Positions 598 to 63,219 of a stretch of DNA of 64,000 nucleotides are shown here, piece after piece (position 1 is the first letter of the stretch; every line of letters begins with the position of its first letter). Made by a program: the position numbers and the translations under genes. Below the pieces are notes generated by a model. That model saw only the letters and a list, made by a program, of their open reading frames with translations, had not been told where the DNA came from and ran no database searches. Where the stretch lies: the NCBI GenBank assembly GCA_044892525.1, contig CM097885.1, positions 15,688,001 through 15,752,000 of the forward strand, given 5' to 3'. This DNA comes from Schmidtea polychroa. Lineage: Eukaryota.

Positions 598-1928
598 AAT
601 ATAGGCTATATATTACACGTATAGAATACAATATCACCGAAATAACACACATAGAATATAATACACCGAAACCTCCAGCTATAATATAATAACTGGTATA
701 ATAATAGCTATAATAGGGATGATCATTGCCGTGGTCGTTGCCAACGGTAGACAACCCAAATCCACTAGGTATTCATCATCATCTACTTGCCTACCATGGA
801 CCATTATCAGGTATATACCTGTAGTTTTATCGGTAGCAATCACATCTCTCCTCAATATTCTGACTTTGATATAACAGTTAAAAATCATTGTTAATGGTTC
901 TTTTCCAACCATTCGCACGTCCAGATTAATGTTGCCTTGATTGTTAGGCTGACTTCGGATTGTTTTCCCATTTCTCCTCATCAACGCTTCGATTTGCGTC
1001 TGAAATGGGCTTGTTTCTTTTACCACTGGTAGTATAATTGGAATTATTGCTACCAACAAATCTACTGGTATTCGTAATACTAACATCCAGTCTAGTATTT
1101 CTTTTATGGTTTCTCCGTCTCATGGAGAATTTTGTAATTCTAACCCTTGTCGTTGGGATAATTGTTGAGTTTCCTCCAATCTCTCAATTTCCATCTAAGT
1201 AATTAAGAATATACTGTCTTGATACATTACCGCCACTGGCTTCGGTGCTGTCTTTGTTGTGAGCTTCGTCACTCTACCGAGGAGTATCCCGTTCTGTAGA
1301 AGTGTTTGGTTTGCTTCTAGTTTTATTCCACATAAGTACAAGTCATATCATTGATGCTTAATACTTGTCAATGTCTCTGTTAATTTATCTGCTCGACATC
1401 TTGCATTTATATCGAGAATATACTCTTTATCCTGAGGGAGTTTTATATTGAGCTAAGCATCTTGGAGATCTCACTCATTCTCCATGATTTCTTCTAATAT
1501 CCTTAGGATTTTATATGTGTCGTTATGATGCATTGGGTCATCTTCAATCTGCGATATCAGCTTCACTAATGTATCAATGAAAAATATTTATTTTGATATA
1601 TTTTTAATTTGTATTTGTCGTTAAAAATGTTAAAATTTTACATTTCTGTATCAAATTGTAATTTAAATAATTTTGTAATATTTAAAATAAATAAGAAAAA
1701 AATTAGCATTAATAATATTTTGAATTGCTCTAAAAGCTAAAGAACAATATTTATAAAATGTTTGTTTCTCTACTTCAAAATACAAATTATAAATATTGAA
1801 ATTGTAAACGTCAGAGGAAATAATTAATATAATAAGTATGATTATTGAAATGTTGTAAAATGTTGAAATATTTTGATAATTTTGTTAATTTTAGAGTTAA
1901 TTTTATAGTTTGTTAATTTTATAGTTAA

Positions 1929-3525
1929 ATGTTGGCAAGCGTATGGGAAATGATGAAGAGGAAAGAATTTGAATTTGATAATGAAATCAGCAGTGAATTG
2001 ATATGCAGAATTTGCAAATGTTTAATGATAAAAGCTTGCCATGCTCCTTGCGTTTGTGGCTTTTGTTCTGATTGCATTGAAAATTATTTGGATGGAAAAG
2101 ATAAATTCTGTCCAGGAGCAGCAAAACATTGTAGAAAGAAAATGATCAATTTCAATAAAGATGTTTCTGAAGATCATGCAGCTAATTTAAGGATTTCAGA
2201 AGTGGTAGTGAGATTCCCAATGCAAAATTGTCAATTTAAAGATGAATTAGAGGTGATGGAGAGCCACATGAGAACATGCAACAAGCAACCAATAAAATGT
2301 TTATTCAATAGAATCGGATGCGAAATGAATGAGGTGGTAAAGGATGAAATGAAAGTCCATCTCATTGAGAACACTGAAGGCCATAGCAAATTATTGATTG
2401 ATCAGATCAGTAATTTGTGCAATGAGATGCAAGCAATGAGAGACGAGAATGTGACATTGTGTAATGAAATTATCAATATCAATGTAAAATTGTATTTGCA
2501 ATTAATTTTATTGATATTTAGGATTGGAGGTGAAATTGTGCAATATTGAAAAGAAAGAGACTGAAAACAGAGAAGATATAGAAGAATTGAATGAGGAAAT
2601 GGTGGCATTGAAGAATGAGAACCGCTCATTGAGAATGGATATGGAGACAAATATTGGATCAATCAATCAGGTTTGATTATTGATTTGATTTGATATTGAT
2701 ATGTTATTGATGGAAAGCAGGTCAGACAGCAAATTGAAGTGATTGAATCAAAATGTCAGCAGCAAATTGATGAGATGAAAGAGAAATGCGAGCAGCGGCT
2801 GCAACAGGTGAATGAAAAGGTGATTTATTGATTTATTGAAATGTTTGAATTTGAGATTCAGTTGCAGCTTGAAATGGCGAAATGTGCCAATGAAATTCGG
2901 CGGAATGAAACAAAATGTCAACAGCAAATTGATGAGATGAAAGAGAAATACGAGCAGCGGTTGCAACAGGCGAATGAAAAGGTGATTTATTGATTTATTG
3001 ACATATTTGAATTTGAGATTCAGTTGCAGCTTGAAATGGCGAAATGTACCTATGAAATTCGGCAGATTGAAACAAAATTAGCAAATGAAAAATATGTAAA
3101 TTACGGATTTTTTGAATGGGAAATCGATAAATTTTCACAACAAAAGAGAAGTAAAAATATTTACAACAAAAGCGTTTTTTTCGGGACTAATCGGTTACAA
3201 AATTTGCTTGTGGGTGCTGATTGATGGTAATTGGGGTATTGGGGCTGGTTTCTGTTTGGTGCGTGGGGCAAATGATGAGCAATTGGATTGGCCGTTCAAT
3301 CAATCCGTGACAATCGATGTGATCGATCCAGCAAATGGCAACATTTATATGAGGAAGTCAATGAAATATTCAGATAGCCCTCTTGATGCAGCTGGATGGA
3401 GGAAACCTTCACACGACAGAAATAATTCAATTGGTATTTATTATTATCCTGATGCCAGCTCAATCTATAAATTAGCAGCCAAAAGTAATAAATTGCTGCT
3501 CAGGAGCAGAATTGAAAAATTATGA
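1929..3525 (+). pseudogene. TRAF-family paralog 1 (RING, 2 TRAF zinc fingers, coiled coil, MATH), probably frameshifted
   Basis: RING CRICKCLMIKACHAPCVCGFCSDC..CP and MATH motifs FFEWEIDKFS, GYKICL, RGANDEQLDWPF. Phase-0 introns of 42-50 nt. An extra A in an A-run near 3165-3171 splits the MATH domain across two ORFs. C>F change in the first zinc finger (RFPMQNC). Confidence 0.85.
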
Positions 3526-6500
3526 CAAATTTAAAAAAACATTTATATAAAAAATTGATTTATTTTGGGTTTTGATTTGTTTTATTATTTGCCTTTTTAT
3601 TATAGCAAATTGCCGATTGCAATATCAATAATATTGCAAAATCAAAAATATTTAATATAAATAATTATTTTAATTAAATTAATAATTAATTTGAAATTAA
3701 ATTTAAATTCACCCGATTATAAGCGCTGACAAATCGCCTCAACAAATCAAACGCTCCTATGACGAGTGAAACCGACGAGAAAACCGCCGCTGATGTTATA
3801 TGAGTTTTGGAGAAATTATTGTTGCATTGAATGGCAATAAAATGCACTTAAATGCAATACTAAAACTGTTATATCAAATTGATAAATGCCTTAACATTTC
3901 ACTAGCTATTTCTGAGGCATTTAAACGGAAATCCGCAACAGCAATGCTGACAAAATGTTCGAAAATTGCTTTCACATCTGTTTGGGTAGTAATTGTATTT
4001 GTACTGAGATCCTTTTTAAGTGCTAGTGACCTGATTTAATATTAAATAATGTAACATTTCATAAATTTATTCACTTTTTCATTCGCTAAATTTTCAAATT
4101 AAAACAAAAAAAGATTTCATGTAAATTAATATTTAAATTCACAAATTTTGATACATTTTATGAATGAATTTTACTTATTAACAAACAACGAAATTTATCT
4201 TGAAATCTTGAAAATATTTTGGAATTATTTGAAAATATTATTCACTTATTTGAAATTATTTTGGAACCTGGATTAATTAGGTACATCAGAAGTTGAAGGT
4301 TGTTAAAGTCAAACTTACAAGTTTTGGGATCAGTGGCTTAACCAATGAGGTGGGTTAAGGGGGTTAAACCTCCCATTGGTTTTTAATTGTACAAATATTT
4401 GTCGATGTCAAGTGCCTAAAAGATCATCCATCTACATAAGAAAAAAACAAGACACTTACTATATTTTATTGTAAATATAATACTGTGACATATGTCTGTA
4501 CTTTGTAGTCTATACTCTCAGTTAAATTTTATTTTGGCTATTTTTTTCTGATGTTCAATACGTATCTCCGTACTTTATGGAGTAAGCGAATGACGTCATT
4601 ATTACAGACACCCCTATCATGAAGGTCTTAGTGCCTTCGACACCCTCAAAAGTCAACGCTTGAAATGATTGACCATATTATTAATAAATATTTCTCAACT
4701 CCAATCCCCTCACATTCATAAATTCCTGGTTACGTTGGAATATTAAGAGTTTTGGTTGGCAAATAACTCAGAATTTGGCAAGTATGTTTTTTTAATGTCT
4801 TAGTAACTGATAGATTTATCATTAGCTCTTACTTAAACGCCTCAATGGATATTTTACATTTTACCATAAATATACCCATGCCAACCACCTTATTTCGAAT
4901 GTACACAGTAGTTGAAAATCATTTAGCAGGTGAGCTCAATTTAGAAAGATGGGTTACGAGTTGGGAGAACAATTTATGCTTATCCTTGCAAATGTAGGCC
5001 TTTTCCTGCCGTTGCTTACACTTTACCGTATTTCATTCGTAACTCCGCATAACTATTGATTTTACCGCTAAATGCCCATCGCAAGCGACACTGGTGTTTT
5101 AATTTAGTTGGTCACCATCAACTAAAGGTGGAACTTTCACAAAAACTGAAAAAGCACACACTTTAATGAAACAACCACAACTCCTTTGCTCTACGCATTG
5201 CAATATCAGTCTGAACCCTTTGAAGGAATTAATCTCCCTACGGAAGATGTCCGTGTCTGGTACTCTCGATTCGAAAATATATCGTTATCACTAAGTTTAA
5301 TTCTTCTTTGCTTGTTCTTTCTAGATTATCTCTTTTCGTTTCTTCGACCTACTGGCGTTTCTGTTTACTTGCAGGTCGCCTTTAAACCCTTCGGGTAATT
5401 TGATTGTCCTTGGCAAATTATTTTGGATCCATTTTTAACGGTGATTGGAAGTCGAATTTTATGAATCAGAGTGAAGGGAAATTTGCAATAGTTGGGGAAA
5501 ATCGAACATAATATTCCAAATACAAATTTATCCTGCATAGTGAAGTGAAATGAGGTATGACATAGAATGGAACCAGATGAGTCAGTAGATAATAGGTTTC
5601 AAATAAAATCCAGTACTTCGTTATGTCGGCTAATGCAATTAATATCAGTGAAATCGTACTAATTCCAAACGAAGATCGAATATTGCTCCTGCCGGGCTGG
5701 AAACCGAGGTAATCAAAAAACTTTTGTAAATTTAAATTTTCCATAAATTAATTAAAGATAACCCTGTATTAACATAAATTGAGGTAATCAACCAAATGTA
5801 AGGAAAATAAAGAATAAAATAGAGGAAAAATAATAGAATAAATCAAAAATTAAAACAAGTCACTAAAATAAAATAAATAATAAACAAGTCGCAAACAGAC
5901 AAAAGTACATAACCATATCCGACAAGCAAAGAAAAAATAATTAGAAAGAATAAAAATAAATACCAGAAAAACAAAATATTACTAAACGAATAAATTATAA
6001 TCAAAAAACAAAGAATAAAATACTAAATCAGGATCCAATAAAAAGCAGGAGAAAATGTGAAAATTAAATTATTTAATAAATTATCAAAAGAAAAAGATAA
6101 ATAACCTGGAAAAAGAACTTAAAAATAAGAAAAAACACAACTTCACACAACAGCTGGATCCTGATTAGACAAAAATTACTATATAACGAAAACACTTTAT
6201 TGATTCCCTCAGTTCTAACAAACTTCATACAGGAACCAATTCAGCATCACTCTCATTGATCTATTACTTGATTCTTATATTATATCGCAGCAAATTTTCA
6301 GAATTTTTATCAATCAGACAGGAAAAGAGAAATGTAAATTTTCGTTTATTATTTATGTACAAGTAGCATTATAATTTATTTGGATAAATATTATGATAGT
6401 TTTTAAATGTCTCACTTTTATCTTCACAATACGAATTTTTATGTTGAGATCCAGCGATGACACCGTTCTACGATTATGAGGGTTAGAATGCGAAAAGCCG

Positions 6501-9045: not shown

Positions 9046-10353
<1,308 letters not shown>

Positions 10354-10371
10354 TGGTAGCAGAGCGTGGTT
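10354..10371 (+). promoter_or_regulatory. Primer-binding site, tRNA-iMet type
   Basis: TGGTAGCAGAGCGTGGTT directly after the LTR CA; complementary to the animal initiator tRNA 3' end (..CTCTGCTACCA). Confidence 0.85.
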
Positions 10372-13300
10372 CCGGCTAGCCAGCCGGAACAAGGTAATAG
10401 ATGATTATATAATGTATTTTTTGTATTTACGTGATTATTTTGTGAATTATTTTATGAATTATAATATGTGTTATATTTTTATTGTTGAAACATTTCCCCT
10501 AGGGCCTGCCCTCCCTAACCCCATTAGAGGTGGATTGGCGCGGGTATTTGTCAAAATAATAACAGGGAAGACAATTACTCTCGAAGTTGAATCTAGTGAC
10601 ACGATAGAAAATGTTAATGCGAAAATACAAGATAAAGAGGGTAGTCCACCTGACCAGCAACGATTAATTTGCGCGGGAAAACCATTAGAAGATGAGCGAA
10701 CATTATCTGATTATAATATTCAAAAGGAGTCTACTTTGCGTTTAGTTTTGCGATTGAGGGGTGGAATGCAAATATTCGTGAAGACACTGACAGGAAAAAC
10801 AATAACTTTGGAAGTAGAATCAAGTGATACTATTGAGAATGTAAAGGCTAAAATTCAAGAAAAAGAAGGGATACCCCCAGGGCGACAAAGACTTAATTTT
10901 GCCGGGAAAGTATTAAAAGATGGCCTAACGTTGTTAGATTATAACGTTAGGAAAGAAGCCACGGTACATCTGGTTTTGGGGCTGGCAGGGGGAAGTCCAG
11001 TATCAGATGCGGAGTTCGAGGCGGGGTACAAGAGACGAACCGGGTGGAAGATTTCGTTAGGGCGTCTACGTAACCGGGCCTTAGGAGATGGATCGGACCC
11101 TGGGGAAGATCAAAGGAGAATGGAGGCTTACGAAGATATGTATGAGGAAGTCATAAACGAATTGGAGGACCTGAGGAATAATGCTCGGGAGTTAGGGCGG
11201 GAGAAAGAAGAAAAGGAAATTGAGGCAGATCTGAAACGGTTAGAAGCGGATTTCAGCAGAATCGGCGATCTGGTCCTCACGCAGAAGGAAGAGAGTTTTA
11301 GAGTAGAGTCGCGGAAGGGCACAGAAAAATCATTTAGGAGCGAAGAGCCCAATGAGAAACAGAAGTGCATAATGGGTTTGAAACCCTTGCAGCTGCCGAT
11401 CTTTAATGGAAAGGTAATAGAATATCCTGGATGGAGGGCAATTGTGAGAGCCTGCATCGAGGACACGGATGAGCCGAGTGAAAGAAAGTACTTGTACCTG
11501 AGACAGTACTTGGAAGGGAAGCCGCTGCAATTAATTGCCTATATTGGATATGGCTCGCAGGCTTTCGAGGCGGCGATAAAATTACTTGATGAAAGGTATG
11601 GGGGACCAGAAAGATCCTATTCCATGATGCTGGATGCGGTGCAGAGGTTCTTCCCAGTGAGGCTCAACGTCTTGGAGGACCTAGAGCGGTTTGAAGAGCT
11701 GCTAGGAAACCTCATCCTGAATTTCAAGGATCAGAAGAGGGAAGGCGAGTTAAACAACGGGATGTTGTATCACCAACTGCTGAAGAAGCTGCCAGAGACC
11801 ATGCTGATTCAGTGGTCACGCCATTGTGATTCGGGGAGAGAGGGAAATGTGCAAACGCTAGCCGAGTGGATCAAAACGGAAGCTAATAGGCATCGGCAAG
11901 CAATGAGCATTCTGTTTGGAGAAGGGCGGGCAAAAGGTAGAACTGTCGCCCCAACAACTAACTTCGGAAATGCGAATAGGGGCACGAAGTTAACGGATAG
12001 TAGGCGCAAGATAGAGGTTAGCAGTGCTCGAAAAAAGGAACCAATTTGTGTGAAATGTGGTTCAGAACATTATTTAAATCAATGCTCAGAGTTCCTAAAG
12101 CTGACTGTTAAGGAACGAAATGAGTTTGTGACCAAGAAGCGGCTTTGTTACAATTGTCTTACAACAGCTCACATGGTTAGAGAATGCGAAAAACCGAGCT
12201 TTTGTAAGGACAGAGATTGTACTCGAAAGCATCACAATTTGCTCCATGGCTCAGAGAACAAAGTTGATGGAGATCAAGAGCCGAGCAATGAGAACACATC
12301 AATGATGACGGTTCAAGATACACAGAGGAAGAAGATGTATGTTCCTTTACGAACGATTACAGCAAAGTTGATTAATAAAGGAAAGGCGGTCAAGATCAAC
12401 GCATTGCTAGACGACGCTAGCAATGTTAGCTATATTAGCGATTGGGCGGCGCAAGAACTGGGGTTGGGAGGACAGTGGCAAAGCACTCCAGTTGGCGTGA
12501 TTGGTGGACAATCACAAATGTTGGAAACGAAGCCCGTGACGCTATTATTGGCAAGCAACAATAACAATTTAAAGGTAAATTTGAACGTCCTGGTGGTAAA
12601 AAAGGTCACTGGAGACCTGGGAATGTGTAACTGGAGGAAGTTATCGGCGAAATGGAAGCATCTGCGATATATAAACTTCCCGGTTATGAATACAAGGACG
12701 CAGATTGATGTATTGATTGGTTCTGATTACCCATATCTACATCGATCTATTTGCGAAGTAACAGGAGCAAAGCATGAACCAATTGCAAGGTTGACGCCCC
12801 TCGGATGGACATGTCTTGGTAGGATTGCAAGAAATCAAGCTCCAAGATGTTCGCATTTGGCTCAGAGTTATTTTGCGGTAACGGAAATGTTAAACGACGG
12901 AGAAATGATTATTCATGATGTAGATAATTCTGAAGAAATGGATTATATTAAAGAATGGGATAAAAACGATGAAACACATGAAAACAAAAAGGCTAGCGAA
13001 GATGGAGATAGGGAAAGCAATGAATGTGAGAATTTACAATCTAGCGATATTATAAATCAAGATGGAATAGAGCAAAATCGAGTCAATGAGAACGAGAATA
13101 ATTATTCTGAATTTGTAAAAAGTAATACTGAACTATTAGGCAAAGCTTTTGATAAAGGAGACCAAGTTACAGCAGATGAGTTAGAAAATATTGTCAAAAG
13201 TCACAATCAAGAAGAAAATTTTGAAAGTAAATATGATGAAACTGAAGTAGATGTGTCAGACAAGAATGAAAATTATAATAGTCATGTAGGCACAGAGGTT

Positions 13301-13857
13301 GTCGACATTAATGTTATCGAAAGACCGAATTCTTTGGTAGAAGATAATTTTCAAAACATGGAAGACGTAGTTAATGTTCAAACGGATTCTGCTTCTTCAG
13401 AAAATCATTTAGAAACTGATCGAATTATGCCAGATTCTGAGAGCAATGACAGTGATCTTAGAGTCGATATTGGTAAAGATCATACATCCGACACAGCTAA
13501 AGATTCTGAACAAAATACATTCACTCAACCAACGTCTGCTTTAGATGATATCATTGAAGACTATTCACCTGGTTCCCCTTTATTAAATGAGATGCAACAG
13601 GGAAAAGTGGGGACTATTGAATTGGTGAAACATGCAGGAAGGATAATGGAGATATTGCAGCGAAACAGAATGAAAAGTGGCAGGGGCTTGGTCGAGTATG
13701 GCGATGGTGGGAGGAGAATCCACCATGATGTATCCAGAAAAGTGCGTGGTGCGGTGGCCTTTACCATAGCAAGATGGGTGTGTGAGGGGTATTGGAGAGA
13801 GGCAAAAGGAAAGGTTCCCCTGAAGTAATTGGGTGGTTGATCCGCTAGAAGGGATCA

Positions 13858-13870
13858 AGGAGGGGGGAAA
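13858..13870 (+). promoter_or_regulatory. Polypurine tract
   Basis: AGGAGGGGGGAAA abutting the TG of the 3' LTR. Confidence 0.88.
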
Positions 13871-14735
13871 TGTTTCGACCAGTCAGAGGGGGATTGCCTC
13901 TGACTGGCATTTATTCGGTTTCTTTTTCTATCGCGTCTGTGTGCGCGGTCTGGTTAGACCGAATATTGTTGGTGTGCGCACACAGACGCGAGCAATGGAT
14001 TGTTGTTTGGAAGTAGGTTTTGATGTAATTTTTTATTGAATTGATTTTTGATGTATTTTAATTAGAAATTCGAGATTTGAATGGATTGTTTTGTGGTTTA
14101 AAAAAGGTAAAATTCTGGAAGGGAGGAAACCAGTTTTGTTTATTGAAATAAGTTTTGGAATCGAAATGTTTGAAGAAGAAGATGTTGATTACAAATTTAT
14201 TAAAGCTTATGATGTTCCAAACCAAGATCTTATTTCTTATTTCGATGAAACCCGTGAATTCATTGAAAATGGCAGAAAATTTGGTGGAGTATTGGTTCAC
14301 TGTCTTGCTGGAAGATCAAGAAGTGGAACTATTTTGACGGCTTATTTAATGAAACATTTTAAAGTTGGTCCAAACGATGCGATTGAGACAATTAAGGAAA
14401 AGTCATTTATATGTCCAAATGATGGATTCATGAAACAATTAAAGATATATTTCAACATGAATTGCAGTGATGAAATCAACAAATGCGCAAATACAGTTTC
14501 TCAAGCTCAATTTAAGTTATCAGCATCTTCAAAAGATTTAGTTCAATTCAAATGTAGAAAGTGTCGATTTTTATTATTCGACAATTCAAGTGTTGTTGAG
14601 CACAGTAAAATGAAAGCTTCGAAAGCAATAAATGAAAGCACAATTTGCAATGAGGAAATACTTATCGAAGCTCTTCCTTGGATTGATAGCAGCAATGCAG
14701 ACGGGGAAATGAAAATGACAGTGTTAAAGAATAAA

Positions 14736-14738
<3 letters not shown>
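13871..14738 (+). repeat. 3' LTR with a second DUSP12-like copy; last ~26 bp missing
   Basis: Matches the 5' LTR except for a 16-bp indel and one SNP seen (T9918/C14329). Runs into (ATT)n right after AATAAA. Confidence 0.92.
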
Positions 14739-14930
<192 letters not shown>

Positions 14931-17564: not shown

Positions 17565-18872
17565 CAGTTGGGTATTTTCCGAGAAAATCACATTCTCGAG
17601 ATTCGGGATTTCCCGAAGCAAATTCTATAGAATTCTCGAGAAGTCGAGAAAATTTAAAAAACCTATAAAAAATTCTAAAATCAATGTAAAATAAAGAAAT
17701 TCGAAAAAAATATGTTTTTTATTTAAGTAAGAAGTAGTAAACAATTAATTAAAGCAATTAAAGTCATAAACAAAACAGAAGTAAAACAAAAATAGTTCAA
17801 AACATTATTAAAATAGAATAGAGTATTAAAACAAAATTAATTCAAAAATATTATTTACTAAAATAAAATTTCAGAAAACATAGACTGTCAATGGCTGCGT
17901 CTGCAATCGCGTACGCTTTTGCGAAACAAAAAAGTTGGCTTAATTGTATTAAAAGCCCAGATCAGTCTTTGAACATTTGTTGTTTTCTGTCCACTTTTTT
18001 CATATATATTTAGTTCCTTTTTAAATATCGGAAAAAGTTCGTTTGACGCATGTTGCGCAATGTTTTCTTTTGGTTTTGAGCATTGCTGGACATAGTTTTC
18101 AAGTTGTTTCGCCATATCTTCTTCTTCAACGCTGTTGTTCACAATCACAGCATCATCGGCAGAATCAGAAACTGCTTGCTCTTCTTGAATGCTTGTAGAA
18201 AAAAGACGAAAGAGGTACGCTTTGGCAGATAAGAAAGATCTGCTAGTTTTCTTTTTAGGCTGGATAGAAACTCGTCGCATAATTCAGTGTGCTGATTCTC
18301 CAATTTTGTGAACAATAGTTTTAGAATAAAATTCGTTGCAAGTAAGTTCACATTTTGGCGGCTGAGAGCTTCGACAGCAACACGAATAAGTTTTAGAGCA
18401 TTAATGATATTCTCACAATGCTTTTCTTCTGCTACAGTAGTTGCCATAACCGTTAAATTGAGCGTGTCGAGTTCCTTACAAACGTGCTTGCTGATGCGAA
18501 TGAACCTCGTCAGCATCGATTGAAGGCTGTTCCAACGTGTCTTACAATCCAATAGCAAGATAAGCTCTTTCTGCAAAAGCTCTTTTTGCAAAGTTAAAAC
18601 TCTTACTCTGACTCCAAGCGTGTCTTTGACTAACCCACATATACCACTTGACAACAGGAATCTTTATTGATGATCACAAATAATTTTCACTTTACTCTGA
18701 CAATCAATTCAACACTCCGCTCAGTGACTATACAATACTTATTGAAACACTCAGTGAAGAATAACACTCGAGTAAAACACCGGATTAAAAGATCCTTAAC
18801 TACTGATTGGTTTATCGCCTGGGGCTTTGAGTTGGTTGTTTTCTTTGAGATTCTTTGAATTTTTTTTATCAT
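17565..18872 (-). mobile_element. Degenerate hAT transposon
   Basis: LLLDCKTRWNSLQSMLTRF hAT motif in frameshifted ORFs; CAGTTGGG..TCTCGAGA terminal-like repeats near 17565-17650. Confidence 0.8.
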
Positions 18873-19235
18873 TATCTTTTCTTGTTTGTTTATTTATGAT
18901 TCTTTCAGTTTGTTTCACGATTTTTTCTTCTTTCTGTTTTGTTTCTTGACATTTTGATTTTTGTGTCGCTTGTTTTTCTTACCAAAATTTAACCGTTAAT
19001 TTTAAGGGCTAAAGGTCAGTGTCAATGTATACCTTGATGTAAATAAATAAATATTACAATATTTGTTTACTATTATCAAGATTTAACTACAAATGGATTA
19101 GCATGAATAATAATTTTTCAACTTCCTATAATTTCGTAAACATTATATTTATTAAAAAACTTGACCTATTGTGGATAACTCATGGTGCATGTGATGGTGG
19201 ATGTATAATAAATATTAATAATAAATATTAATGAT

Positions 19236-20107
19236 TGTTTCAGCCGATTTTGGATGATTTTTTTTGTATCGCGTCTGTGTGCGCACACAGACGCGAGTAA
19301 TAGGTAATTTATATTTTATATGTTATAAGTTATGTTTCTGTAGTAATAGATTTAAATCGATCTTTAATTTGTGGAATTTGGTTTTGATGGTTTGTTAATG
19401 GAAGAGCAGGAATCGTTTGTTTGAACTGGTAAATTGTGTAGAAATTTTGGATTTTTGTTTTTTAGTTGAAACATGGAAGAAAATGAAGGCCTGAAATGTC
19501 GTCTTCCAATGAGCAATATAGCGAAGATTATTTTCTCACCTGAAGGGAGATCATTCCAAGTCGAATATGCATTTAAGGCAATTGCATTAGATGGATTGCT
19601 TTCCGTTGGTATTCGAGGCAATAATGGTGGTGTAGTAGCTACACAAAGAAAAGTTCCAGATAAAATGATTGAGAAGAGTTCAGCTACAAGATTGTTTAAT
19701 ATTACTGAAAGTACTGAATGGGTTATGACTGATATGATCCCTGATTGTCGATCTCAAACATGTCGTGCACAAATGGAAGCAGATCGATTTAAATATAAAA
19801 ATGGATATGAAATGCCTTGTGACATAACATGTCGTTGTATCGCGGATATTAATCAGCTCTACACCCAATCGGCTGAGATGCGACCATTAGGTTTATCAAT
19901 GATAGCATTATCTTATGATATTGAAATGGATAAACCGTTATTATTCAAAACTGACTCCAGTGGCTTTGTAACTGGACATCGAGCTGTTGCAGTTGGTGGG
20001 AAGCAATTGGAGGCTAAAAGTTATTTGGAAAAGAAACTACGTAAAAATAGAGCGTGTGAAACTATCAAATACATAAAAATCTTTTTGACGTGTTTTAGAC
20101 GAAAACA
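19236..20107 (+). mobile_element. Solo LTR (872 bp) related to the DUSP12 LTR, carrying a proteasome alpha ORF
   Basis: TGTTT...AAACA ends; 6-bp target-site duplication AATGAT (19230-19235 and 20108-20113); shared TCGCGTCTGTGTGCGC/GCGCACACAGACGCGA palindrome; CATAAA 30 nt from the end. Confidence 0.82.
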
Positions 20108-20165
20108 AATGATAATAATAACAAATAATAATATTAATAATAATGATAATAATAACAAAAAATAA
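19473..20165 (+). CDS. PSMA6: Intronless, truncated proteasome subunit alpha type-6-like ORF (LTR cargo)
   Basis: IFSPEGRSFQVEYAFKAI, TQRKVPDK, RFKYKNGYEMP, ADINQLYTQSAEMRPLG, SYLEKKL. Native N-terminal tail and C-terminus absent; no stop inside the LTR. Confidence 0.88.
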   Translation: MEENEGLKCRLPMSNIAKIIFSPEGRSFQVEYAFKAIALDGLLSVGIRGNNGGVVATQRKVPDKMIEKSSATRLFNITESTEWVMTDMIPDCRSQTCRAQMEADRFKYKNGYEMPCDITCRCIADINQLYTQSAEMRPLGLSMIALSYDIEMDKPLLFKTDSSGFVTGHRAVAVGGKQLEAKSYLEKKLRKNRACETIKYIKIFLTCFRRKQMIIITNNNINNNDNNNKK

Positions 20166-21605
20166 ATAATAATAATAAGAATAATAATAATAATATAAAA
20201 CGAAGATTCCTTGCCAGTAGCATCGATTAAAAATAAAATAATTAATAAATAAAGTTCTAAGATTTCAGTGCAAATTTCATATTTAATAAAAAAATAAATG
20301 AGAATTTTCGACTATGAAATAATCTTATTTAATTGATTGAAAAATAAATAATAAAATTCCACTACTGGTCAATGTAGGCAAGGTGATTGCTCGCCATATA
20401 TTCTCAGGAAATGGCCATAGTTTGCCTTTTGATGGACATGAAGGACATTTTGTATCCGGCTATTGCTGGAGGTAATATTTTATATGGATGACACGTGTCA
20501 GCTGCCTGAGAGCCACAGGAATATCCTAGAAGGCCACTATTAGCATAGAAAGGAACTTATTTACTCCTTCACTCACCAATGAGAATGAATAATAATTTAA
20601 CATTATGCCATTTTCGCATCTAATGCTTTACTGATCCATCTCAGCCATGTAGAGGCGCCATTGAAAGCTTGGTCAGACCGCGTGCCAATACTCATGCTCA
20701 TTGCGGAAAATCCAGTCAAATCGCCTTCATTGCCCTCATAAACATTACACAAATGCACTCAGTCTGGGACACATTTCTCGCTATCCGTTCTGAGTAAGCA
20801 TCCGTTTGTACAGCTCCTTTCATGCATGCCATCTGATATGTCAGTGTGGGATCTTGTCTGTGTACAAGTTTCCACACCTTTAAATTGAGGATCTAGAAAG
20901 GATAAAATCAAATTCCTAATAAGTCACGTCACAATGTATCAATGCGTTCGATGAAATAACAAAAAACAATGAAAGATGACCACGACTACTGTTGAATGAC
21001 ATCAGAATGGTCCTGACAATTGCTCAATGGTGTCCATTAATTGGATTAATATTAAAAAATATAAAACAAATGTTTGATTTTTTGCTGAATCTGCTGTGAC
21101 CGATTTCTGTGCCATATTTATGTACATCTATCAAAACATACACTCTCCAGGACATTCACTAGCACAGTGAACTACAATTTGATAGAATCAATTTAATTAA
21201 GTGTCAATTAGGCATTGCATTGATCACAGATTTCATAAAATTATACAAATATTCGTTACAATTTAATTTTTTATTGTGTTAAATCTAATCCAATTTATCA
21301 ATATTGCTTTGTGCATTTGATGTTTTATCATTGCAACTATGTCACAATAAAATGTTATAAAATTATAATTTAAATAATTTTGTAATATTTAAAATAAATG
21401 AGAAAAAAATTAACATTAATAATATTTTGATTTGCGCTAAAAGTTAAAAAACAATATTTATAAAATGTTTGTTTATCTACATCAAAATACAAATTATAAA
21501 TATTGAAATTGTCAACGTCAGACGAAATAATTAATATAATAAGTATGATTTATGATTGTTGTAAAATGTTGAAATATTTTGATAATATTGTTAATTTTAG
21601 ATAAA

Positions 21606-23465
21606 ATGTTTGCAATCGTATGGGAAATGATGAAGAGGAATAAATTTGAATTTGATAATGAAATCAGCATTGAATTGATATGCAGAATTTGCAAGTGTTT
21701 AATGATAAAAGCTTGCAATGCTCCTTGCGGTTGTCGCTTTTGTTCTGATTGCATTGAGCAATATTTGGATGGAAAAGATAAATTCTGTCCAGGAGCATCA
21801 AAACATTGTGGAAAGAAAATGATCAATTTCAAAAAAGATGTTTCTGAAGATCATGCAGCCAATTTAAGGATTTCAGAAGTGATAGTGAGATGCCCAATGC
21901 AAAATTGTCAATTCAAAGATGAATTAGAAGTGATGGAAAGCCACATGAGTACATGCACCAAGAACACTGATCAGATCAGTAATATATGCAATGAGATGCA
22001 AGCAATGAGAGATGAGAATGTGACATTGCGTAATGAAATTATCAATATCAATGTAAAATTTTATTTGTAATTAATTTTATTGATATTTGTGATTGTAGGT
22101 GAAACAGAGCAATATTGAAAGGAAAGAGGCGGAGAACAAAGGAGAAATAGAAGAATTGAATGAGGAAATGGTGGCATTGAAGAATGCGAACCGCTCATTG
22201 AGAATGGATATGGAGACAAATATTGGATCAATCAGTCAAGTTTGATTATTGATTTGATTTACTATTGATTTGTTATTGACGCAAAGCAGGTCAGACAGCA
22301 AATTGAGGCGATTGAATCAAAATGTCAACAGCAAATTGATGAGATGAGAGAGAAATGCGAACAGCGGCTGCAACAAGGGGATGAAAAGGTGATTTATTGA
22401 TTTATTGAAATATTTGATTTTGAGATTCAGTTGCAGCTTGAAATGGCGAAATGCGCCAATGATATACGGCAGAATGAATCAAAATATCAACATCAAATTG
22501 ATGAGTTGAAAGAGAAATGCGAGCAACGTTTGCAACAGGTCAGACTGCAAATTGAGGCGATTGAATCGCCTCAAATGAGAGAAATAATTCAATTGGCATT
22601 TTTAATTATTATCTTGATGCTCATGGCAGCTCAAATTCGGCAGAATGAAACAAAATGTCAACAGCAAATTGATGAGACGAAAGAGAAATACGAGCAGCAG
22701 TTGGAACAGGGGAATGAAAAGGTGATTTATTGATTTATTGAAATGTTTGAATTTGAGATTCAGTCGCAGCTTGAAATGGCGAAATATGTCAATGAAATTC
22801 GGCAGAATGAATCAAAATATCAACATCAAATTGATGAGATGAAAGAGAAATACGAGCAGCGGTTGCAACAGGGGAATGAAAAGGTGATTTATTGATTTAT
22901 TGAAATGTTTGAATTTGAGATTCAGTCGCAGCTTGAAATGGCGAAAAGCGCCAATGAAATTCGGCAGATTGAAACAAAATTAGCAAATGAAAAATATATA
23001 AATTATGGATTTTTTGAATGGCAAATCGATAAATTTTCACAAGAAAAGAGAAATGAAATTATTTACAGCGAGGCATTTTATTCCGGGCCAATCGGTTACA
23101 AAATGTGCTTGTGGTTGGGGACTAGTGGTGATTTGTTTGGGATTTTTAATTGGGTTAATGTTGGTTTCTGTTTGATGCGTGGGGCAAATGATGAGCAATT
23201 GGATTGGCCGTTCAATCAATCCGTGACAATCGATGTGATCGATCCAGAAAATGGCAACATTTATATGAGCAAGTTTATGAAATATTCAGATCGCCCTCTT
23301 GATGCCGGATGGAGGAAACCGTCACAAGACAGAAATGATCCAATTGGCATTTATTATGAGTATTATGATGTCAGCTCAATCTATAAATTAGCAGCCAAAA
23401 GTGATAAATTGCTGCTCAGGTGCAGAATTGAAAAATTCTTACAAATTAAAAAAACAAATCAATAA
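21606..23465 (+). CDS. TRAF-family paralog 2, apparently intact (~545 aa, 6 exons)
   Basis: Exons 21606-22052, 22099-22239, 22290-22388, 22431-22721, 22764-22883 and 22926-23465 splice in frame without stops. The second zinc finger is deleted in frame. Confidence 0.85.
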
Positions 23466-24427: not shown

Positions 24428-25310
24428 CTCTTAGCAATACACAAAGCAATCAAACACTTCCAACATTTATTCGAAGGACGAAACTTAAAAATATTCACAG
24501 ATCACAAACCGCTAACTAACGCAATCATAATAAAGAACCCCTCACCAAGTCAAATTAGACAATTCAACTTCATTTTACAATTTAACTGCACAATAAACTA
24601 CGTAGCGGGAAAATAAACATAGCAGCTGACGCTCTATCAAGAAACGAAAGTGACATAAACTCCCTGGAATTCGAAAACATAATCAAATTGGATCAAATTA
24701 AATCCAAACAAAACGAAACAATTAACAAACTTCCCACTAAACACAGTTTGAAACTACAAGAACTCAACGGAGTATGGCACGACGTCTCCAACAAAAGCAA
24801 CAAACGAATATTACTTCAGGAGGAATTCCGTGAAAACTGCATCGAAAAGATACACAAGATTAATCACTCTGGAAACAAAGTAACATTCGAACTAATAAAC
24901 AACAATTATATATGGCCTAAAATGCGGAAAGACATCAAAAACTACGTCAAGAGAGTTCACAGCTGCCAGTTAAATAAAACAACAAAAAACTCAAACCTCT
25001 AAAAGTAAACTTCCCAAGCAGCGAAGTCTTCTAAACAATACACACAGATATTGTAGGACCACTACCACCAAAAGACAACTACAAATACCTGTTGACAATT
25101 ATAGACAGCAAATCCAACTGGTTCGAAGTAATCCCAATAGAAGAAATCACCGCAAAAAATATATGTGAAATGATCGAATTAAATTGAATAGCTTGTTATG
25201 GCCAACCGAAAACATTCATAACCGATCAAGACAGACAGTTCGAATCAGAAATGTTCAAAATACTCTGCAACAAATACAACATCAAAAAGAACCGAACAAC
25301 AGCTTTCTTT
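24428..25310 (+). mobile_element. Degenerate Ty3/Gypsy RNase H-integrase fragment
   Basis: LLAI..AIKHF, IFTDHKPL, ADALSR, YIWPKMRKDIK, HTDIVGPLP and ITDQ motifs with stops and frameshifts. Confidence 0.85.
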
Positions 25311-47900: not shown

Positions 47901-48267
47901 ATTTCCCCAAATTTTAAAAGCTCCTAAAATTAATTTTCGCAAAAAATAACGTAATTTTATATATGGTCAAAATTAACTTGTAAATTTTTTTTAAAATATT
48001 ACTTTATTATAGGAAATCAACCGTATAGGAAATATACAAGATTATTACAAGAAAAATCTTCCCAACTCAAATTATTACACAAATGCACTCAGTCTGGGAC
48101 ACATTGAGGAGCCATTGAAAGCTTGGTCACACCGCGAGCCAATACTCATGCTCATTGCGAAAAATCCAGTCAAATCGCCTTTATTGCCCTCATAAACATT
48201 ACACAAATGCACTCAGTCTGGGACACATTTCTCGCTATCCGTTCTGAGTAAGCATCCGTTTTGTACA

Positions 48268-49408
48268 GGTCATAGTAAATTATTGATTGATGAGATCAGT
48301 AATATATGCAATGAGATGCAAGCAATGAGAGATGAGAATCTAAAATTGCGTAATGAAATTATCAATATCAATGTAAATTTGTATTTGTAATTAATTTTAT
48401 TGACATTTGTGATTGTAGGTGAAACTGGGCAATATTGAAAGGAAAGAGGCGGAGAACAAAAGAGAAATAGAAGAATTGAATGAGGAAATGGTGACATTGA
48501 AGAATAAGAATCGCTCATTGAGAATGGAGATGGAGACAAATATTGGATCAAACAATCAAGTTTGATTATTGATTTGATTTGCTATTTATTTGTTATTGCT
48601 GCAAAGCAGGTCAGACAGCAAATTGAAGTGATTGAATCAAAATGTCAACAGCAAATTGATGAGATGAAAGAGAAATGCGAGCAGCGGCTGCAACAGGGGA
48701 ATGAAAAGGTGATTTATTGATTTATTTAAATATTTGAATTTGAGATTCAGTTGCAGCTTGAAATGGCGAAATGCGCCAATGAAATTTGGCGGAATGAAAC
48801 AAAATGTCAACAGCAAATTGATGAGATGAAAGAGAAATGCGAGCAGCGGCTGCAACAGGCGAATGAAAAGGTGATTTATTGATTTATTGAAATATTTGAA
48901 TTTGAGATTCAGTTGCAGCTTGAAATCGCGAAATGCGCCAATGAAATTCGGCAGATTGAAACAAAATTAGCAAATGAAAAATATATAAATTACGGATTTT
49001 TTGAATGGGAAATCGATAAATTTTCACAACAAAAGAGAAATGAAAATATTTACAGCAAGGCATTTTATTCTGGACCAATCGGTTAGAAAATGTGCTTGAG
49101 GGTGCTGATTGCGGGTTATGGCTGGTTTCTGTTTGATGCGTGGGGCAAATGATGAGCAATTGGATTGGCCGTTCAATCAATTATTGACAATCGATGTGAT
49201 CGATCCAGCAAATGGCAGCATTTATCAGGGCAAGTCAATGAAATATTCAGATTTGCCTCGTCATGCCGGATGGATGAAACCGTCAAATGACAGAAATAAT
49301 CCAATTCGCATATATTATGGCCCTGGTGCCAACTCAATCTATCAATTAGCAGCCAAAAGTGATAAATTGCTGCTCAGGGGCAGAATTGAAAAATTCTTAC
49401 AAATTTAA
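48268..49408 (+). pseudogene. TRAF-family paralog 3, 5'-truncated
   Basis: Lacks RING and zinc fingers; TAC>TAG at 49084-49086; frameshift in the MATH variable loop. Confidence 0.88.
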
Positions 49409-59200: not shown

Positions 59201-60936
59201 ACCCGTTTGCACTGAATAAGCTCATCTGTAATATGGGTTGGTGTGTACAATCCATTATATTACAGATGCGTCATAATCTGTGATGTATTTCAGATGGAAT
59301 TTTTGGGTTTTAGGTAATTTAAGTCGGTAACATCTGACTCCTCGTGTGCTTTTAATCAAAACAATAAACTACCTAACGTATATTTGAATCACAAAAATAA
59401 AAAAAAAATCACAAAAAAAGGCAAAATGCTGATTAGTATCACGAATTTTGATGAGGGAGACAAAGTGATTCACGGTAACGGAAGGCTCACACAACTGACA
59501 CAACAGCGCATAATTAATGGAATACAAAGACATATTTGCTGTCTCAGATTTAGGTTTGGGTTAATAATTTAACATTATACCATTGGTGCATCTAATGCTT
59601 TACCGATGTAGAGGAACCACATGCCAATAGTCATACTGATTGCGAAAAATCCAGTCAAATCACCTTCATTGCCCTCTTAAACATTACACAAATGCACTCA
59701 GTCTTGGACACGTTTCTCGCTATCCCTTCTGAGTAAGCATCCGTTTTGTAGAGCTCCTTTCATTCATGTCATCCGATATGTCAGTGTAGGATCTTGTCTG
59801 TGTACAAGTTTCCACACCTTCAAATTGAGGATCTAGAAAGGATAAAATCAAATTCCCTCAACTCGTCATTAATTCATATTCATACACAAGGTAACACCAT
59901 AGGTAATACTTAGCTAAATATTTTATGCGAATGATTCTTCCTTTCATAATATTGACGTTTGTAGGCTACGGAATAAGTGATATGCAATTATATTTGTATC
60001 ATTGTTGATAAAACTTGTGGCCCCCATTCCCTCCATTTACCATGTCAGTTACTGTCAAATACTTTATTCTGCAATGGCATAAAATCCTTCATTCATTAAA
60101 CAAATATGGAAGACTAAATAAAATAAGCGTTTCCAAAGCATTTATCACACTGGGCATGGATATAGATGAATGCTACTGACACCCTGTGATCTATTCCATC
60201 AACTTTTACACATTCGCGATTGTAGGAAGAACTCTTGATAGAAACCCCTAATATGTCACGTCACAATGTATCAATGCGTTCGATGACACAACAAAGAACA
60301 ATGAAAGATGACCACGGCTAATACATACACCCTCCTATTGGATAGAATCAATTAAAATTTCGTGTCAATTAGGCATTGCATTGATCACAGATTTCATAAA
60401 ATTATAGAAAAATTCGTTACAATTTAATTTTTATTGTGTTAATCTAATCCAATTTATCAGTATTGCTTGGTGCATTTGATATTTTATCATTGCACCTTTG
60501 TCACAATAAAATGTGAAAATGTCAATATGGGGCTCACAGGAACCTTGTACACATTAGAAAATGCCTGACAAATATTTGTAACCATGACGAGATCATTAGA
60601 TCAATATATTAGCATTTTTTGAAAATTATTTATTTTTATATTTTGATATAATTTTAATTTGTATTTGCCGTTAAAAATGTTAAAATTTTAGATTTTGTTA
60701 TAAAATTGTAATTTAAATAATTTTCTAATATTTAACATAAATGATATTAATAATATTTTGATTTGCGCTAAAAGCTAAAACACAATATTTATAAAATGTT
60801 TGTTTATCTACATCAAAATACACATTATAAATATTGAAATTGTCAACGTCAGAGGAAATAATAAATATAATAAGTATGATTTCTGAATGTTGTAAAATGT
60901 TGAAATAAATTTATAATTTTGTTATTTTTAGATAAA

Positions 60937-62538
60937 ATGTTTGCAAGCGTATGGGAAATGATGAAGAGAAAAGAATTTGAATTTGATAATGAAATCAGCA
61001 ATGAATTGATATGCAGAATTTGCAAATGTTTAATGATAAAAGCTTGCCATGCTCCTTGCGGTTGTCGCTTTTGTTCTGATTGCATTGAGCAATATTTGGA
61101 TGGAAAAGATAAATTCTGTCCAGGAGCAGCAAAACATTGTGGAAAGAAAATGATAAATTTCAATAAAGATGTTTCTGAAGATCATGCAGCCAATTTAAGG
61201 ATTTCAGAAGTGATAGTGAGATGTCCAATGCAAAATTGTCAATTCAAAGATGAATTAGAAGTGATGGAGAGCCACATGAGAACATGCAACAAGCAACCAA
61301 TAAAATGTTTATTCAATAGAATCGGATGCGAAATGAATGAGGTGGTAAAGGATGAAACGAAAGTCCATCTCAATGAGAACACTGAAGGCCATAGCAAATT
61401 ATTGATTGATCAGATCAGTAATTTATGCAATGAAATGCAAGCAATGAGACACGAGAATGTGATATTGCGCAATGAAATTATCAATATCAATGTAAAATTG
61501 TATTTGTAATTAATTTTATTGATATTTGTGATTGTAGGTGAAACTGGGCAATATGGAAAGGAAAGAAGCGGAGAACAGAGGAGAAATAGAAGAATTGAAT
61601 GAGGAAATGGTGGCATTGAAGAATGAGAATCACTCATTGAGAATGGAGATGGAGACAAATATTGGATCAATCAAAAAAGTTTGATTATTTATTTGATTTG
61701 ATATTGATATGTTATTGAGGCAAAGCAGCTCAGACAGCAAATTGAGGCGATTGAATCAAAATATCAATAGCAAATTGATGATATGAAAGAGAAATGCGAG
61801 CAGCGACTGCAACAGGGGAATGAAAAGGTGATTTATTGATTTATTGAAATATTTGAATTTGAGATTCAGTTGCAGCTTGAAATGGCGAAATGCGCCAATG
61901 AAAAACGTCAGATTGAATCAAAATGTCAACAGCAAATTGATGAGATGAAAGAGAAATGCGAGCAGCGACTACAACAGGAGAATAAAAAGGTAATTTATTG
62001 ATTTATTGAAATATTTGAATTTGAGATTCAGTTGCAGCTTGAAATGGCGAAATGCGCCAATGAAATTCGGCAGAATGAAACAAAATTAGCAAATGAAAAA
62101 TATATAAATTATGGATTTTTTGAATGGCAAATCGATAAATTTTCACAACAAAAGAGAAATGAATATATTTACAGCGAGGAATTTTATTCCGGGCCAGTCG
62201 GTTACAAAATGTGCTTGAGGGTGAGCATTGAGGGTGATTTGGTTTGGCCTGGTTTCTGTTTGATGCGTGGGGCAAATGATGAGCAATTGGATTGGCCGTT
62301 CAATCAATCCGTGACAATCGATGTGATGGATCCAACAAATGGCAACATTTATATGAGCAAGTCAAGGAAATATTCAGATTTGTCCCGTGATGCCGGATGG
62401 GGGGAACCTTCAGATGACAGAAATGATCTAATTGGCATTTATTATTCTATTGGTGATGGCAGCTCAATCTATCAATTAGCAGCCAAAAGTGATAAATTGC
62501 TGCTCAGGTGCAGAATTAAAAAATTCTTACAAATTTAA
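60937..62538 (+). pseudogene. TRAF-family paralog 4 with a nonsense codon in exon 3
   Basis: Full RING, zinc fingers and MATH; CAG>TAG at 61768-61770. Confidence 0.82.
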
Positions 62539-63219
62539 AAAAACATTTCAATAAAGAATTTATTTTGGGTTTTGATTTGTTTTATTGTTTGTCTTTTTTT
62601 ATTATATTTATTATATGAGATTATTATTGTGGTAATTATTGCCATTCTCGCCTTCCATCCGATATCATCATCACGTGGCGGAGCGCGCACAGCAAATGCC
62701 AATTGCAATATCAACATCAATTATATAATTAAATAAAAGCAATTTAATTAAATCAAAAACATTTAATATAAATTAATTTGAATGATTATTATAATTAAAT
62801 TAATAATTAATTTGAAAGAAATTAAATTAAAATTCACCCGAATATAAGCGCTGACAAATCGCCTCAACAAATCAAACGCTCCTATGACGAGTGGAACTGA
62901 CGAAAAAACCGCCGCTGATGTTATATGAGTTTTGGATAAATTATTGCTGTACTGAATGGCAGTAAAATGCACCTAAATGCAATACTAACACTGCGTTATA
63001 TCAAATTGATAAATGCCTTGAAGTTTCGCCAGCTATTTTTGAGGCATTTAAACGAAAATCCGCAACAACAATACTGATAAATAAAATTTGTAAATTAATA
63101 TTTTGATTCTCAAATACAAAATGAATAAATATATAGATAATCTATATTAGTGAAATTCTTAATAAGTAGATGACTCCTAGCAATATACGAAGCACTCAAA
63201 CACTTCCAATATTTTCTTA

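Follow-up and report, generated by a model that had tools for sequence, protein, structure and literature searches.

A solo LTR in the window

The window, that is, the whole 64,000-nt stretch of Schmidtea polychroa DNA that was analyzed, contains at 19236–20107 (plus strand) an 872-bp solo long terminal repeat (LTR) of a BEL/Pao family, whose first bases are TGTTT and whose last bases are AAACA. It is flanked by the target-site duplication (TSD) AATGAT, at 19230–19235 on the left, where it is identical in all 14 array paralogues (see below), and at 20108–20113 on the right. Because the target is a degenerate AAT tract in which a 6-bp repeat could arise by chance, this TSD is on its own weak evidence of insertion; AATGAT occurs twice in the 203 bases to the right of the element. 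It is dispersed copies, with the same two ends and with TSDs of their own, that secure the boundaries, and the same LTR type lies behind a polypurine tract (PPT) in locus L024. An earlier note on this DNA had proposed a solo LTR with these ends and this duplication, which was borne out, its end at 20113 counting the right TSD; it had also asked whether other copies share the boundaries, which the dispersed LTRs do.

Comparison with loci L015–L030 delimits a leader at 19236–19472 (+), which is likely to comprise U3, with the putative promoter, and the start of R. It lacks the 5' hairpin seen in the family and contains, at 19269–19296, a 28-bp palindrome in which the family's two inverted CGCGTCTGTGTGCGC motifs are fused without a spacer. 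An ATG and an N-terminal module (MEENEGLKCR...) follow at 19473–19525 (+); this module, which also opens Cys-rich ORFs in L173, L166 and L054, is likely the stump of an earlier RING-like cargo, as judged from the Cys pattern and a sub-threshold Pfam match in L110. The captured segment of PSMA6 mRNA (host CDS nt 36–562) occupies 19526–20052 (+). At its end, 62 nt upstream of the LTR end, is AATAGA (20046–20051, +), which falls within the 9 nt of microhomology at the 3' capture junction; related LTR ends have AATAAA here, likely a poly(A) signal. The LTR 3' module (20053–20107, +) closes the element, with its final CA in the frame that continues through the primer-binding site (PBS) in 5' LTRs.

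The ORF that starts at the ATG at 19473 encodes 230 aa and reads through into the flanking AAT tract (20108–20165, +), where it meets a chance stop at 20163–20165. It is of PSMA6 type (Pfam Proteasome, 1.6e-31; mammalian alpha type-6, about 1e-55), with flatworm proteins as top database matches. Together with the AT-richness of the window and its TRAF arrays, these matches would suggest a planarian-type flatworm. In agreement with the truncated PSMA6-like frame ending in flanking DNA that had been described earlier, it lacks host codons 1–12 and 188–246. This copy is a decaying relic.

Several other features were observed in the window. RING/coiled-coil/MATH (TRAF-like) genes form a tandem array, with members at 21573–23465 and again near 1650–3900, 48000–49400 and 60700–63000. 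A broken frame at 24428–25168 (+) contains an integrase zinc-binding domain, and another at 17888–18663 (–) gave no Pfam match; by eye, the latter resembles a hAT-type transposase.

Capture of PSMA6 from spliced host mRNA

Employing the C-terminal part of flatworm PSMA6 as query, we located the host gene at G000:C1:117275318-117276193, with 246 codons and three short introns; it was the single full-length candidate found. When PF10584 was used for the search, other alpha subunits were found, and the first intron of host PSMA6 gave that gene a low rank. An intron-containing host gene thus sits apart from the element, which is not the only PSMA6 in the genome. Other host alpha-subunit genes seem to be duplicated: the intron-containing loci L067 and L070, on C3 and C2, are similar to each other, and L068 and L069, 11.7 kb apart on C4, are identical.

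The captured segment carries host codons ~13–187 and is 96% identical to host CDS nt 36–562. Introns 1 and 2 are precisely absent and, therefore, the segment was captured from spliced host mRNA. For the junctions, we used as reference the recipient-type LTRs L054 and L137, which have the same 5' and 3' modules and a different middle. The stretch common to host mRNA and LTR measures 9 nt where the segment ends (3' junction) and, with one mismatch, 7 nt where it begins (5' junction). Such microhomologies would fit template switching as set out in the available text of Tan et al. (PMC5131818).

Array paralogues and family size

In a DNA search of the same genome with the element, 40 of 2409 candidates were scored. 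Among these, 14 were near-identical copies together with their flanks, matching the window stretch at 88–100%, and dispersed copies were found on all four large contigs. The 14 flanked copies represent one insertion that was duplicated with the TRAF tandem array; the PSMA6 frame is open in 8 of them and truncated in 6. An empty allele with a single AATGAT, which had been suggested as a check, was sought with the right flank, and this search returned only the 14 array paralogues, all of them (14/14) filled, and further members of a repeat in the flank, at which the left flank was absent.

The 17-mer at the 5' end of the family LTR has 1095 exact matches in the genome (reversed control, 0) and a PSMA6 23-mer has 667, while the junction sequence of the near-full-length subtype has 35 matches. 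Of 32 LTRs located outside microsatellites, 17 have a 5-bp TSD, 2 a 6-bp TSD and 13 none. The family is a large, recently mobile BEL/Pao family.

Further observations concern individual members. In the sample L051–L146, an (ATT)n/(AAT)n tract lies immediately before 28 of 86 LTR starts, which may reflect either an insertion preference or microsatellite growth after insertion. At G000:C2:21645590-21705150 (L032–L045), 14 tandem LTR-PBS units with a 4.59-kb period represent a degenerate element amplified in a satellite-like manner. In L062, L135, L163/L164 and L173, two LTR starts lie face to face or internal pieces are inverted, suggesting aberrant strand transfers.

Parent elements and the ubiquitin-Gag frame

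A paired-LTR member of the family, with the family's 5' end, is present in the window itself, at 9476–14740 (+). It lacks pol, carries a piece of a DUSP phosphatase in its LTRs, which are 97.7% identical, and has at 10354–10371 (+) a PBS whose complement is found at the 3' end of host tRNA-Met(CAT), and at 13857–13870 (+) a PPT ahead of its 3' LTR. A 1395-codon open frame (9641–13828, +; Pfam on 9641–13825) runs from the LTR cargo (DSPc) through the PBS into two ubiquitin units, Gag (DUF1759 and Cys-His boxes), protease and an acidic tail, with no reverse transcriptase (RT).

Genome-wide, this PBS has 390 matches and exact PPT-LTR joints number 27. At the first 30 PBS loci, at least 100 codons are open upstream in the PBS frame in 23 (4 of them array paralogues), and all 506 codons read downstream are open in 11. 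A PSMA6 piece runs in frame through the PBS in 11 of the 30, and on into ubiquitin and Gag in most of these 11. Genes for tRNA-Met(CAT) form a tandem array with a 454-bp period from G000:C1:79326093 (L224), with 1227 pattern matches genome-wide. In L175, L177, L200 and L202, host pieces also lie directly 3' of the PBS; their translated motifs resemble eIF4A and HSP70.

RT, RNase H and integrase were found in at least 3 of 20 ten-kb stretches (L205, L208 and L217), and L207 and L209 are of similar length. The LTR pairs of these elements are 99.65–99.9% identical, and in each the coding sequence is divided among at least two frames. In L208, a single frame encodes Proteasome, ubiquitin, DUF1759, RVT_1 and Peptidase_A17, and the frame that follows encodes integrase/DUF5641 (Pfam); this domain set assigns it to BEL/Pao. 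The features of that group are all present in the family: TG...CA LTRs with a TSD of 5–6 bp, PBS and PPT, a DUF1759 Gag with Cys-His boxes, and the series PR-RT-Peptidase_A17-integrase-DUF5641. A protein search with ubiquitin-Gag matched polyubiquitins only.

Copies with paired LTRs and a PBS, which the earlier note had proposed to look for, were thus found, some of them with PSMA6 pieces in their LTRs. Its proposal that the PSMA6 frame was the N-terminal module of a polyprotein holds for the family (11/30 PBS loci, and L208), and for the near-full-length subtype such a parent is presumed. We met that subtype only in solo LTRs and in a 3' LTR that follows a PPT (L024/L287), and did not find it upstream of a PBS: the pattern of LTR end plus PBS gave 15 matches, 0/15 with the PSMA6 segment (the two that were read, L031 and L032, have a different cargo), and a PBS was present at none of twelve further RING-PSMA6 loci.

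Cargo diversity and selection

To survey the cargo, we ran Pfam on 51 frames, selected from a pool of 101 cluster representatives and three additions. The domains recovered were Proteasome, Ras, DSPc, Cpn60_TCP1, EAP30, CLP_protease, Adaptin_N, Suf, SelR, Cofilin_ADF, JAB and WD40, with weak matches to RING and myotubularin; frames often hold two or three domains each, and 20 of the 51 gave no Pfam match. In the LTR body, pieces of host mRNAs (PSMA6, Rab, DUSP, TCP1, EAP30, ClpP and others) are joined in frame to a mosaic that runs through the PBS into ubiquitin-Gag(-Pol).

PSMA6 was the most frequent cargo seen, with a piece in 30 of 78 loci of a position-ordered sample. Its segments are nested within nt 33–562, with many entry and exit points, which suggests one early large capture, as in 19236–20107, that may have been overwritten by later ones. 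In young paired-LTR copies, PSMA6 is cut down to 34–120 codons and fused to unrelated pieces, and the cargo of young elements is 85–94% identical to host mRNA. There are 30 distinct PSMA6 exit points, which are not independent events; 26 could be scored, and 22 of these are in phase with the LTR-end frame.

Selection was assessed on 80 PSMA6 segments from 67 loci compared with the host gene, after removal of refetched loci and array duplicates. Changes common to at least two loci, which are not independent events, comprised 129 nonsynonymous (N), 47 synonymous (S) and 0 stop changes (0/176; pN/pS 0.82), and raising the threshold to three or five loci gave pN/pS of 0.97 and 0.95, respectively. 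Private changes comprised 149 N, 46 S and 13 stops (13/208; pN/pS 0.96). Stops thus differ between shared and private changes (Fisher p 3e-4), with ~5% stops expected from the mutation spectrum. The solo LTR itself shows 14 N and 5 S changes relative to host PSMA6.

The internal region was tallied in the same way, for shared changes in 15 copies with L208 as reference. Here, pN/pS was 0.14 in capsid, 0.28 in nucleocapsid, 0.36 in the Gag N-terminus, 0.36 in ubiquitin and 0.94 in the linker between PBS and ubiquitin, and Gag differed from the cargo in constraint (p 1.5e-4). The ubiquitin value comes from 29 shared changes only (16 N and 13 S; p 0.076 vs. cargo). Since constraint was seen in Gag and ubiquitin but none in the cargo, the method detects constraint where it is expected. 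Taken together, these results show that selection on the cargo keeps the frame open and does not preserve the protein, although a pN/pS near 1 could mask a mixture of positive and purifying selection.

The di-glycine of ubiquitin is altered in 22 of 47 raw single-ubiquitin matches, many of them belonging to a single tandem array; for the double type, 3 of the 15 first units show such an alteration. In pairwise dN/dS comparisons of ubiquitin between element types, synonymous sites were saturated, a saturation that probably predates capture.

Regulatory layout and expression

Among 38 distinct LTR ends next to a PBS, 28 have AATAAA at 25–66 nt upstream of the end, vs. 13 of 304 background windows, and 29 of 30 occurrences are in one phase. 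A splice-donor-like AAG/GTA lies 40 nt into the PBS side in most copies. In foamy viruses, the 5' poly(A) site is subject to U1-type suppression, according to the available text of PMC3694450.

None of the sequencing runs with matches is registered as RNA; contigs of spliced host PSMA6 were present in four that we guessed to be RNA. In two or three of the four, contigs also covered non-host LTR parts or cargo junctions, which, as contigs carry neither level nor strand, gives a weak hint of expression. Run X19, which is labelled as another organism, had a divergent host PSMA6 together with a low-depth contig containing the EAP30-PSMA6 cargo junction. The 30 listed loose letters of this contig equal those of run X10; a shared family, recent transfer or sample mixing would each account for this.

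A model for cargo capture in the LTR

The element is a solo LTR of a BEL/Pao family that carries host-mRNA pieces in frame with ubiquitin-Gag, and we consider it probable that the PSMA6 piece is a neutral passenger maintained only as an open frame. In the cycle that we envisage, transcription would start in the ~240-nt leader and end ~35–60 nt before the LTR end, so that most of the LTR would be a very long R. During reverse transcription, the enzyme would use short matches to jump onto a co-packaged host mRNA and to return, and the captured piece, falling in R, would be copied to both LTRs. A scanning ribosome would meet the AUG of the cargo first, as the first AUG of the genomic RNA. Given a first AUG inside the cargo, only in-frame captures would still yield Gag and, therefore, in-frame mosaics would build up. 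A counterpoint is the presence of in-frame AUGs between PBS and Gag; Gag might also start downstream of the cargo.

By analogy with pestiviruses, ubiquitin is predicted to act as a cleavable spacer: host deubiquitinases would cut after the ubiquitin unit, freeing Gag from the upstream cargo, which could then drift. The small number of ubiquitin changes (p 0.076 vs. cargo) and the copies without the di-glycine speak against this cleavage step. The splice-donor-like site past the PBS is predicted to keep the 5' poly(A) signal suppressed, by analogy with the U1-type suppression of foamy viruses. At the locus studied here, LTR-LTR recombination would have produced the solo copy, which would then have been duplicated with the TRAF gene array and decayed. 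Further counterpoints are that this copy has AATAGA and not AATAAA, that its subtype was not found upstream of a PBS and that the search for an empty allele gave none.

In a bolder version, which we advance as a tentative possibility, the LTR would serve as a self-renewing cargo bay. Ubiquitin would uncouple the N-terminus from Gag, R would keep taking up host mRNA pieces that are filtered for frame in each replication round, and more than 1000 cassettes of promoter plus chimeric ORF would have been scattered through the genome, making the family an engine of exon shuffling whose host-like LTR body may also dodge piRNA control.

Alternatively, the cargo might act at the RNA level, an explanation that we regard as unlikely and that is compatible with a PSMA6 piece that is neutral as protein. 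Host-like R sequence with a quick turnover would either evade piRNA silencing or make it costly, because guides against the cargo would also hit essential host mRNAs. The abundance of PSMA6 pieces (30/78 sampled loci and the 667 exact 23-mer matches) and the housekeeping type of the identified cargoes fit this idea, as do the planarian SMEDWI-3 protein, which makes piRNAs from 925 transcripts (PMC6824462, main text), and the captured fragments of maize, which can silence donor genes (PMC13317346, available text). However, the drift of young-element cargo to 85–94% host identity would weaken such protection, the absence of stops requires translation and not RNA mimicry, and neither "Proteasome" nor "dusp" occurs in the main text of PMC6824462.

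It is far less probable that selection maintains the truncated alpha subunit as an effector that protects element proteins by disturbing the assembly or gating of 20S. The rank of PSMA6 as the most frequent cargo, its open frame in 8 of the 14 array paralogues and the ubiquitin- and apoptosis-related domains of planarian Burro elements (available text of PMC6431247) could be read in this way, but the cargo shows pN/pS of 0.8–1.0 vs. 0.14–0.36 for Gag (p 1.5e-4), young paired-LTR copies retain 34–120 codons only, joined to unrelated pieces, and the solo copy has 14 N to 5 S changes vs. host while 6 of its 14 paralogues are truncated. The interference with proteasome assembly that the earlier note had considered is thus disfavoured by a cargo that is free of protein-level constraint, trimmed in young copies and exchangeable with unrelated host fragments. 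Two features of a functional PSMA6 retrogene or paralogue are absent: the subunit is not full-length and the protein shows no purifying selection.

An ordinary processed pseudogene or a Pack-type DNA transposon with coincidentally LTR-like ends, which the missing introns and the short direct repeats in an AT-rich tract might recall, has next to no likelihood, given that the element ends in the LTR 3' module AAACA where a pseudogene would have the mRNA 3' end and a poly(A) tail before the TSD, that its terminal inverted match is merely about 5–7 bp, and that its ends are common to many dispersed copies, the same 5' end flanking PBS-gag-PPT interiors, once in the window; paired-LTR elements with the same ends and PSMA6 pieces rule it out.

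Comparison with known systems

Pack-MULEs are DNA transposons that capture genomic DNA. Together with maize Bs1, they resemble the family described here in being mobile-element mosaics made from several host genes (PMC13317346). As described in the available text of that source, Bs1 is a single element with three transduced pieces, and an LTR as cargo site with a family-wide frame constraint is described there neither for Bs1 nor for Pack-MULEs.

In mechanism, the family resembles LTR-mediated retroposition, in which partial spliced mRNAs are captured at microsimilarities, giving multi-gene chimeras that can enter further retroposition cycles, with BATUMI and BEL18_AG as Pao/BEL cases (Tan et al. 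2016, PMC5131818, available text). A partial mRNA, lost introns and microsimilarity at the switch points are common to both. However, in the few cases reported by Tan et al., retrocopies replace part of the internal ORFs between the LTRs, whereas the present cargo lies inside the LTR upstream of the PBS, occurs in both LTRs, survives as solo LTRs, extends to elements with pol and keeps its frame with Gag throughout a family of more than 1000 LTRs.

With BEL/Pao elements including the planarian "Flow", the family shares the DUF1759 Gag, Cys-His boxes, the order PR-RT-Peptidase_A17-integrase-DUF5641, TG...CA LTRs, the 5–6 bp TSD and a length of 7.5–8 kb (PMC3118150). A frame that starts in host-derived LTR sequence and runs through PBS and ubiquitin is not described in the available text of that paper. 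Burro/GYPSM1 are likewise planarian LTR elements with host-like polyprotein domains (ubiquitin-like, TRAF and BIR), but they belong to the Gypsy clade, measure about 30 kb and have fixed domains after Gag and not exchangeable LTR cargo (PMC6431247, available text).

As to ubiquitin, cytopathogenic pestiviruses have captured cellular ubiquitin mRNA in their polyprotein, where host ubiquitin C-terminal hydrolases cut it, as demonstrated experimentally (PMC8310069, available text). Whereas cleavage is proven in that RNA virus, here position and constraint would suggest it: the position of ubiquitin and its pN/pS of 0.36 fit a processing signal of this type, whereas some copies have lost the di-glycine.

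Our literature search, which covered the main texts of open papers, returned no description of host ORFs inside BEL/Pao LTRs, and the available texts of PMC6431247, PMC3118150 and PMC11410931 do not mention a cargo-in-LTR layout.

Significance

LTR elements are known to capture genes now and then, by accident and in the internal region; in this family, capture is standing, family-wide and located inside the LTR, and it leaves a measurable signature in which the frame is kept and the protein is free. Each of its solo LTRs offers a natural experiment on mRNA co-packaging and on the sites at which reverse transcriptase switches. Hundreds of PSMA6-like and other host-like copies run the risk of being misannotated as gene-family expansions, and host-like LTR copies can confound read mapping, RNAi design and the assignment of "genic piRNAs" in these flatworms. 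Each solo LTR is likely to combine a promoter with a chimeric ORF and would thus constitute a ready source of new genes.
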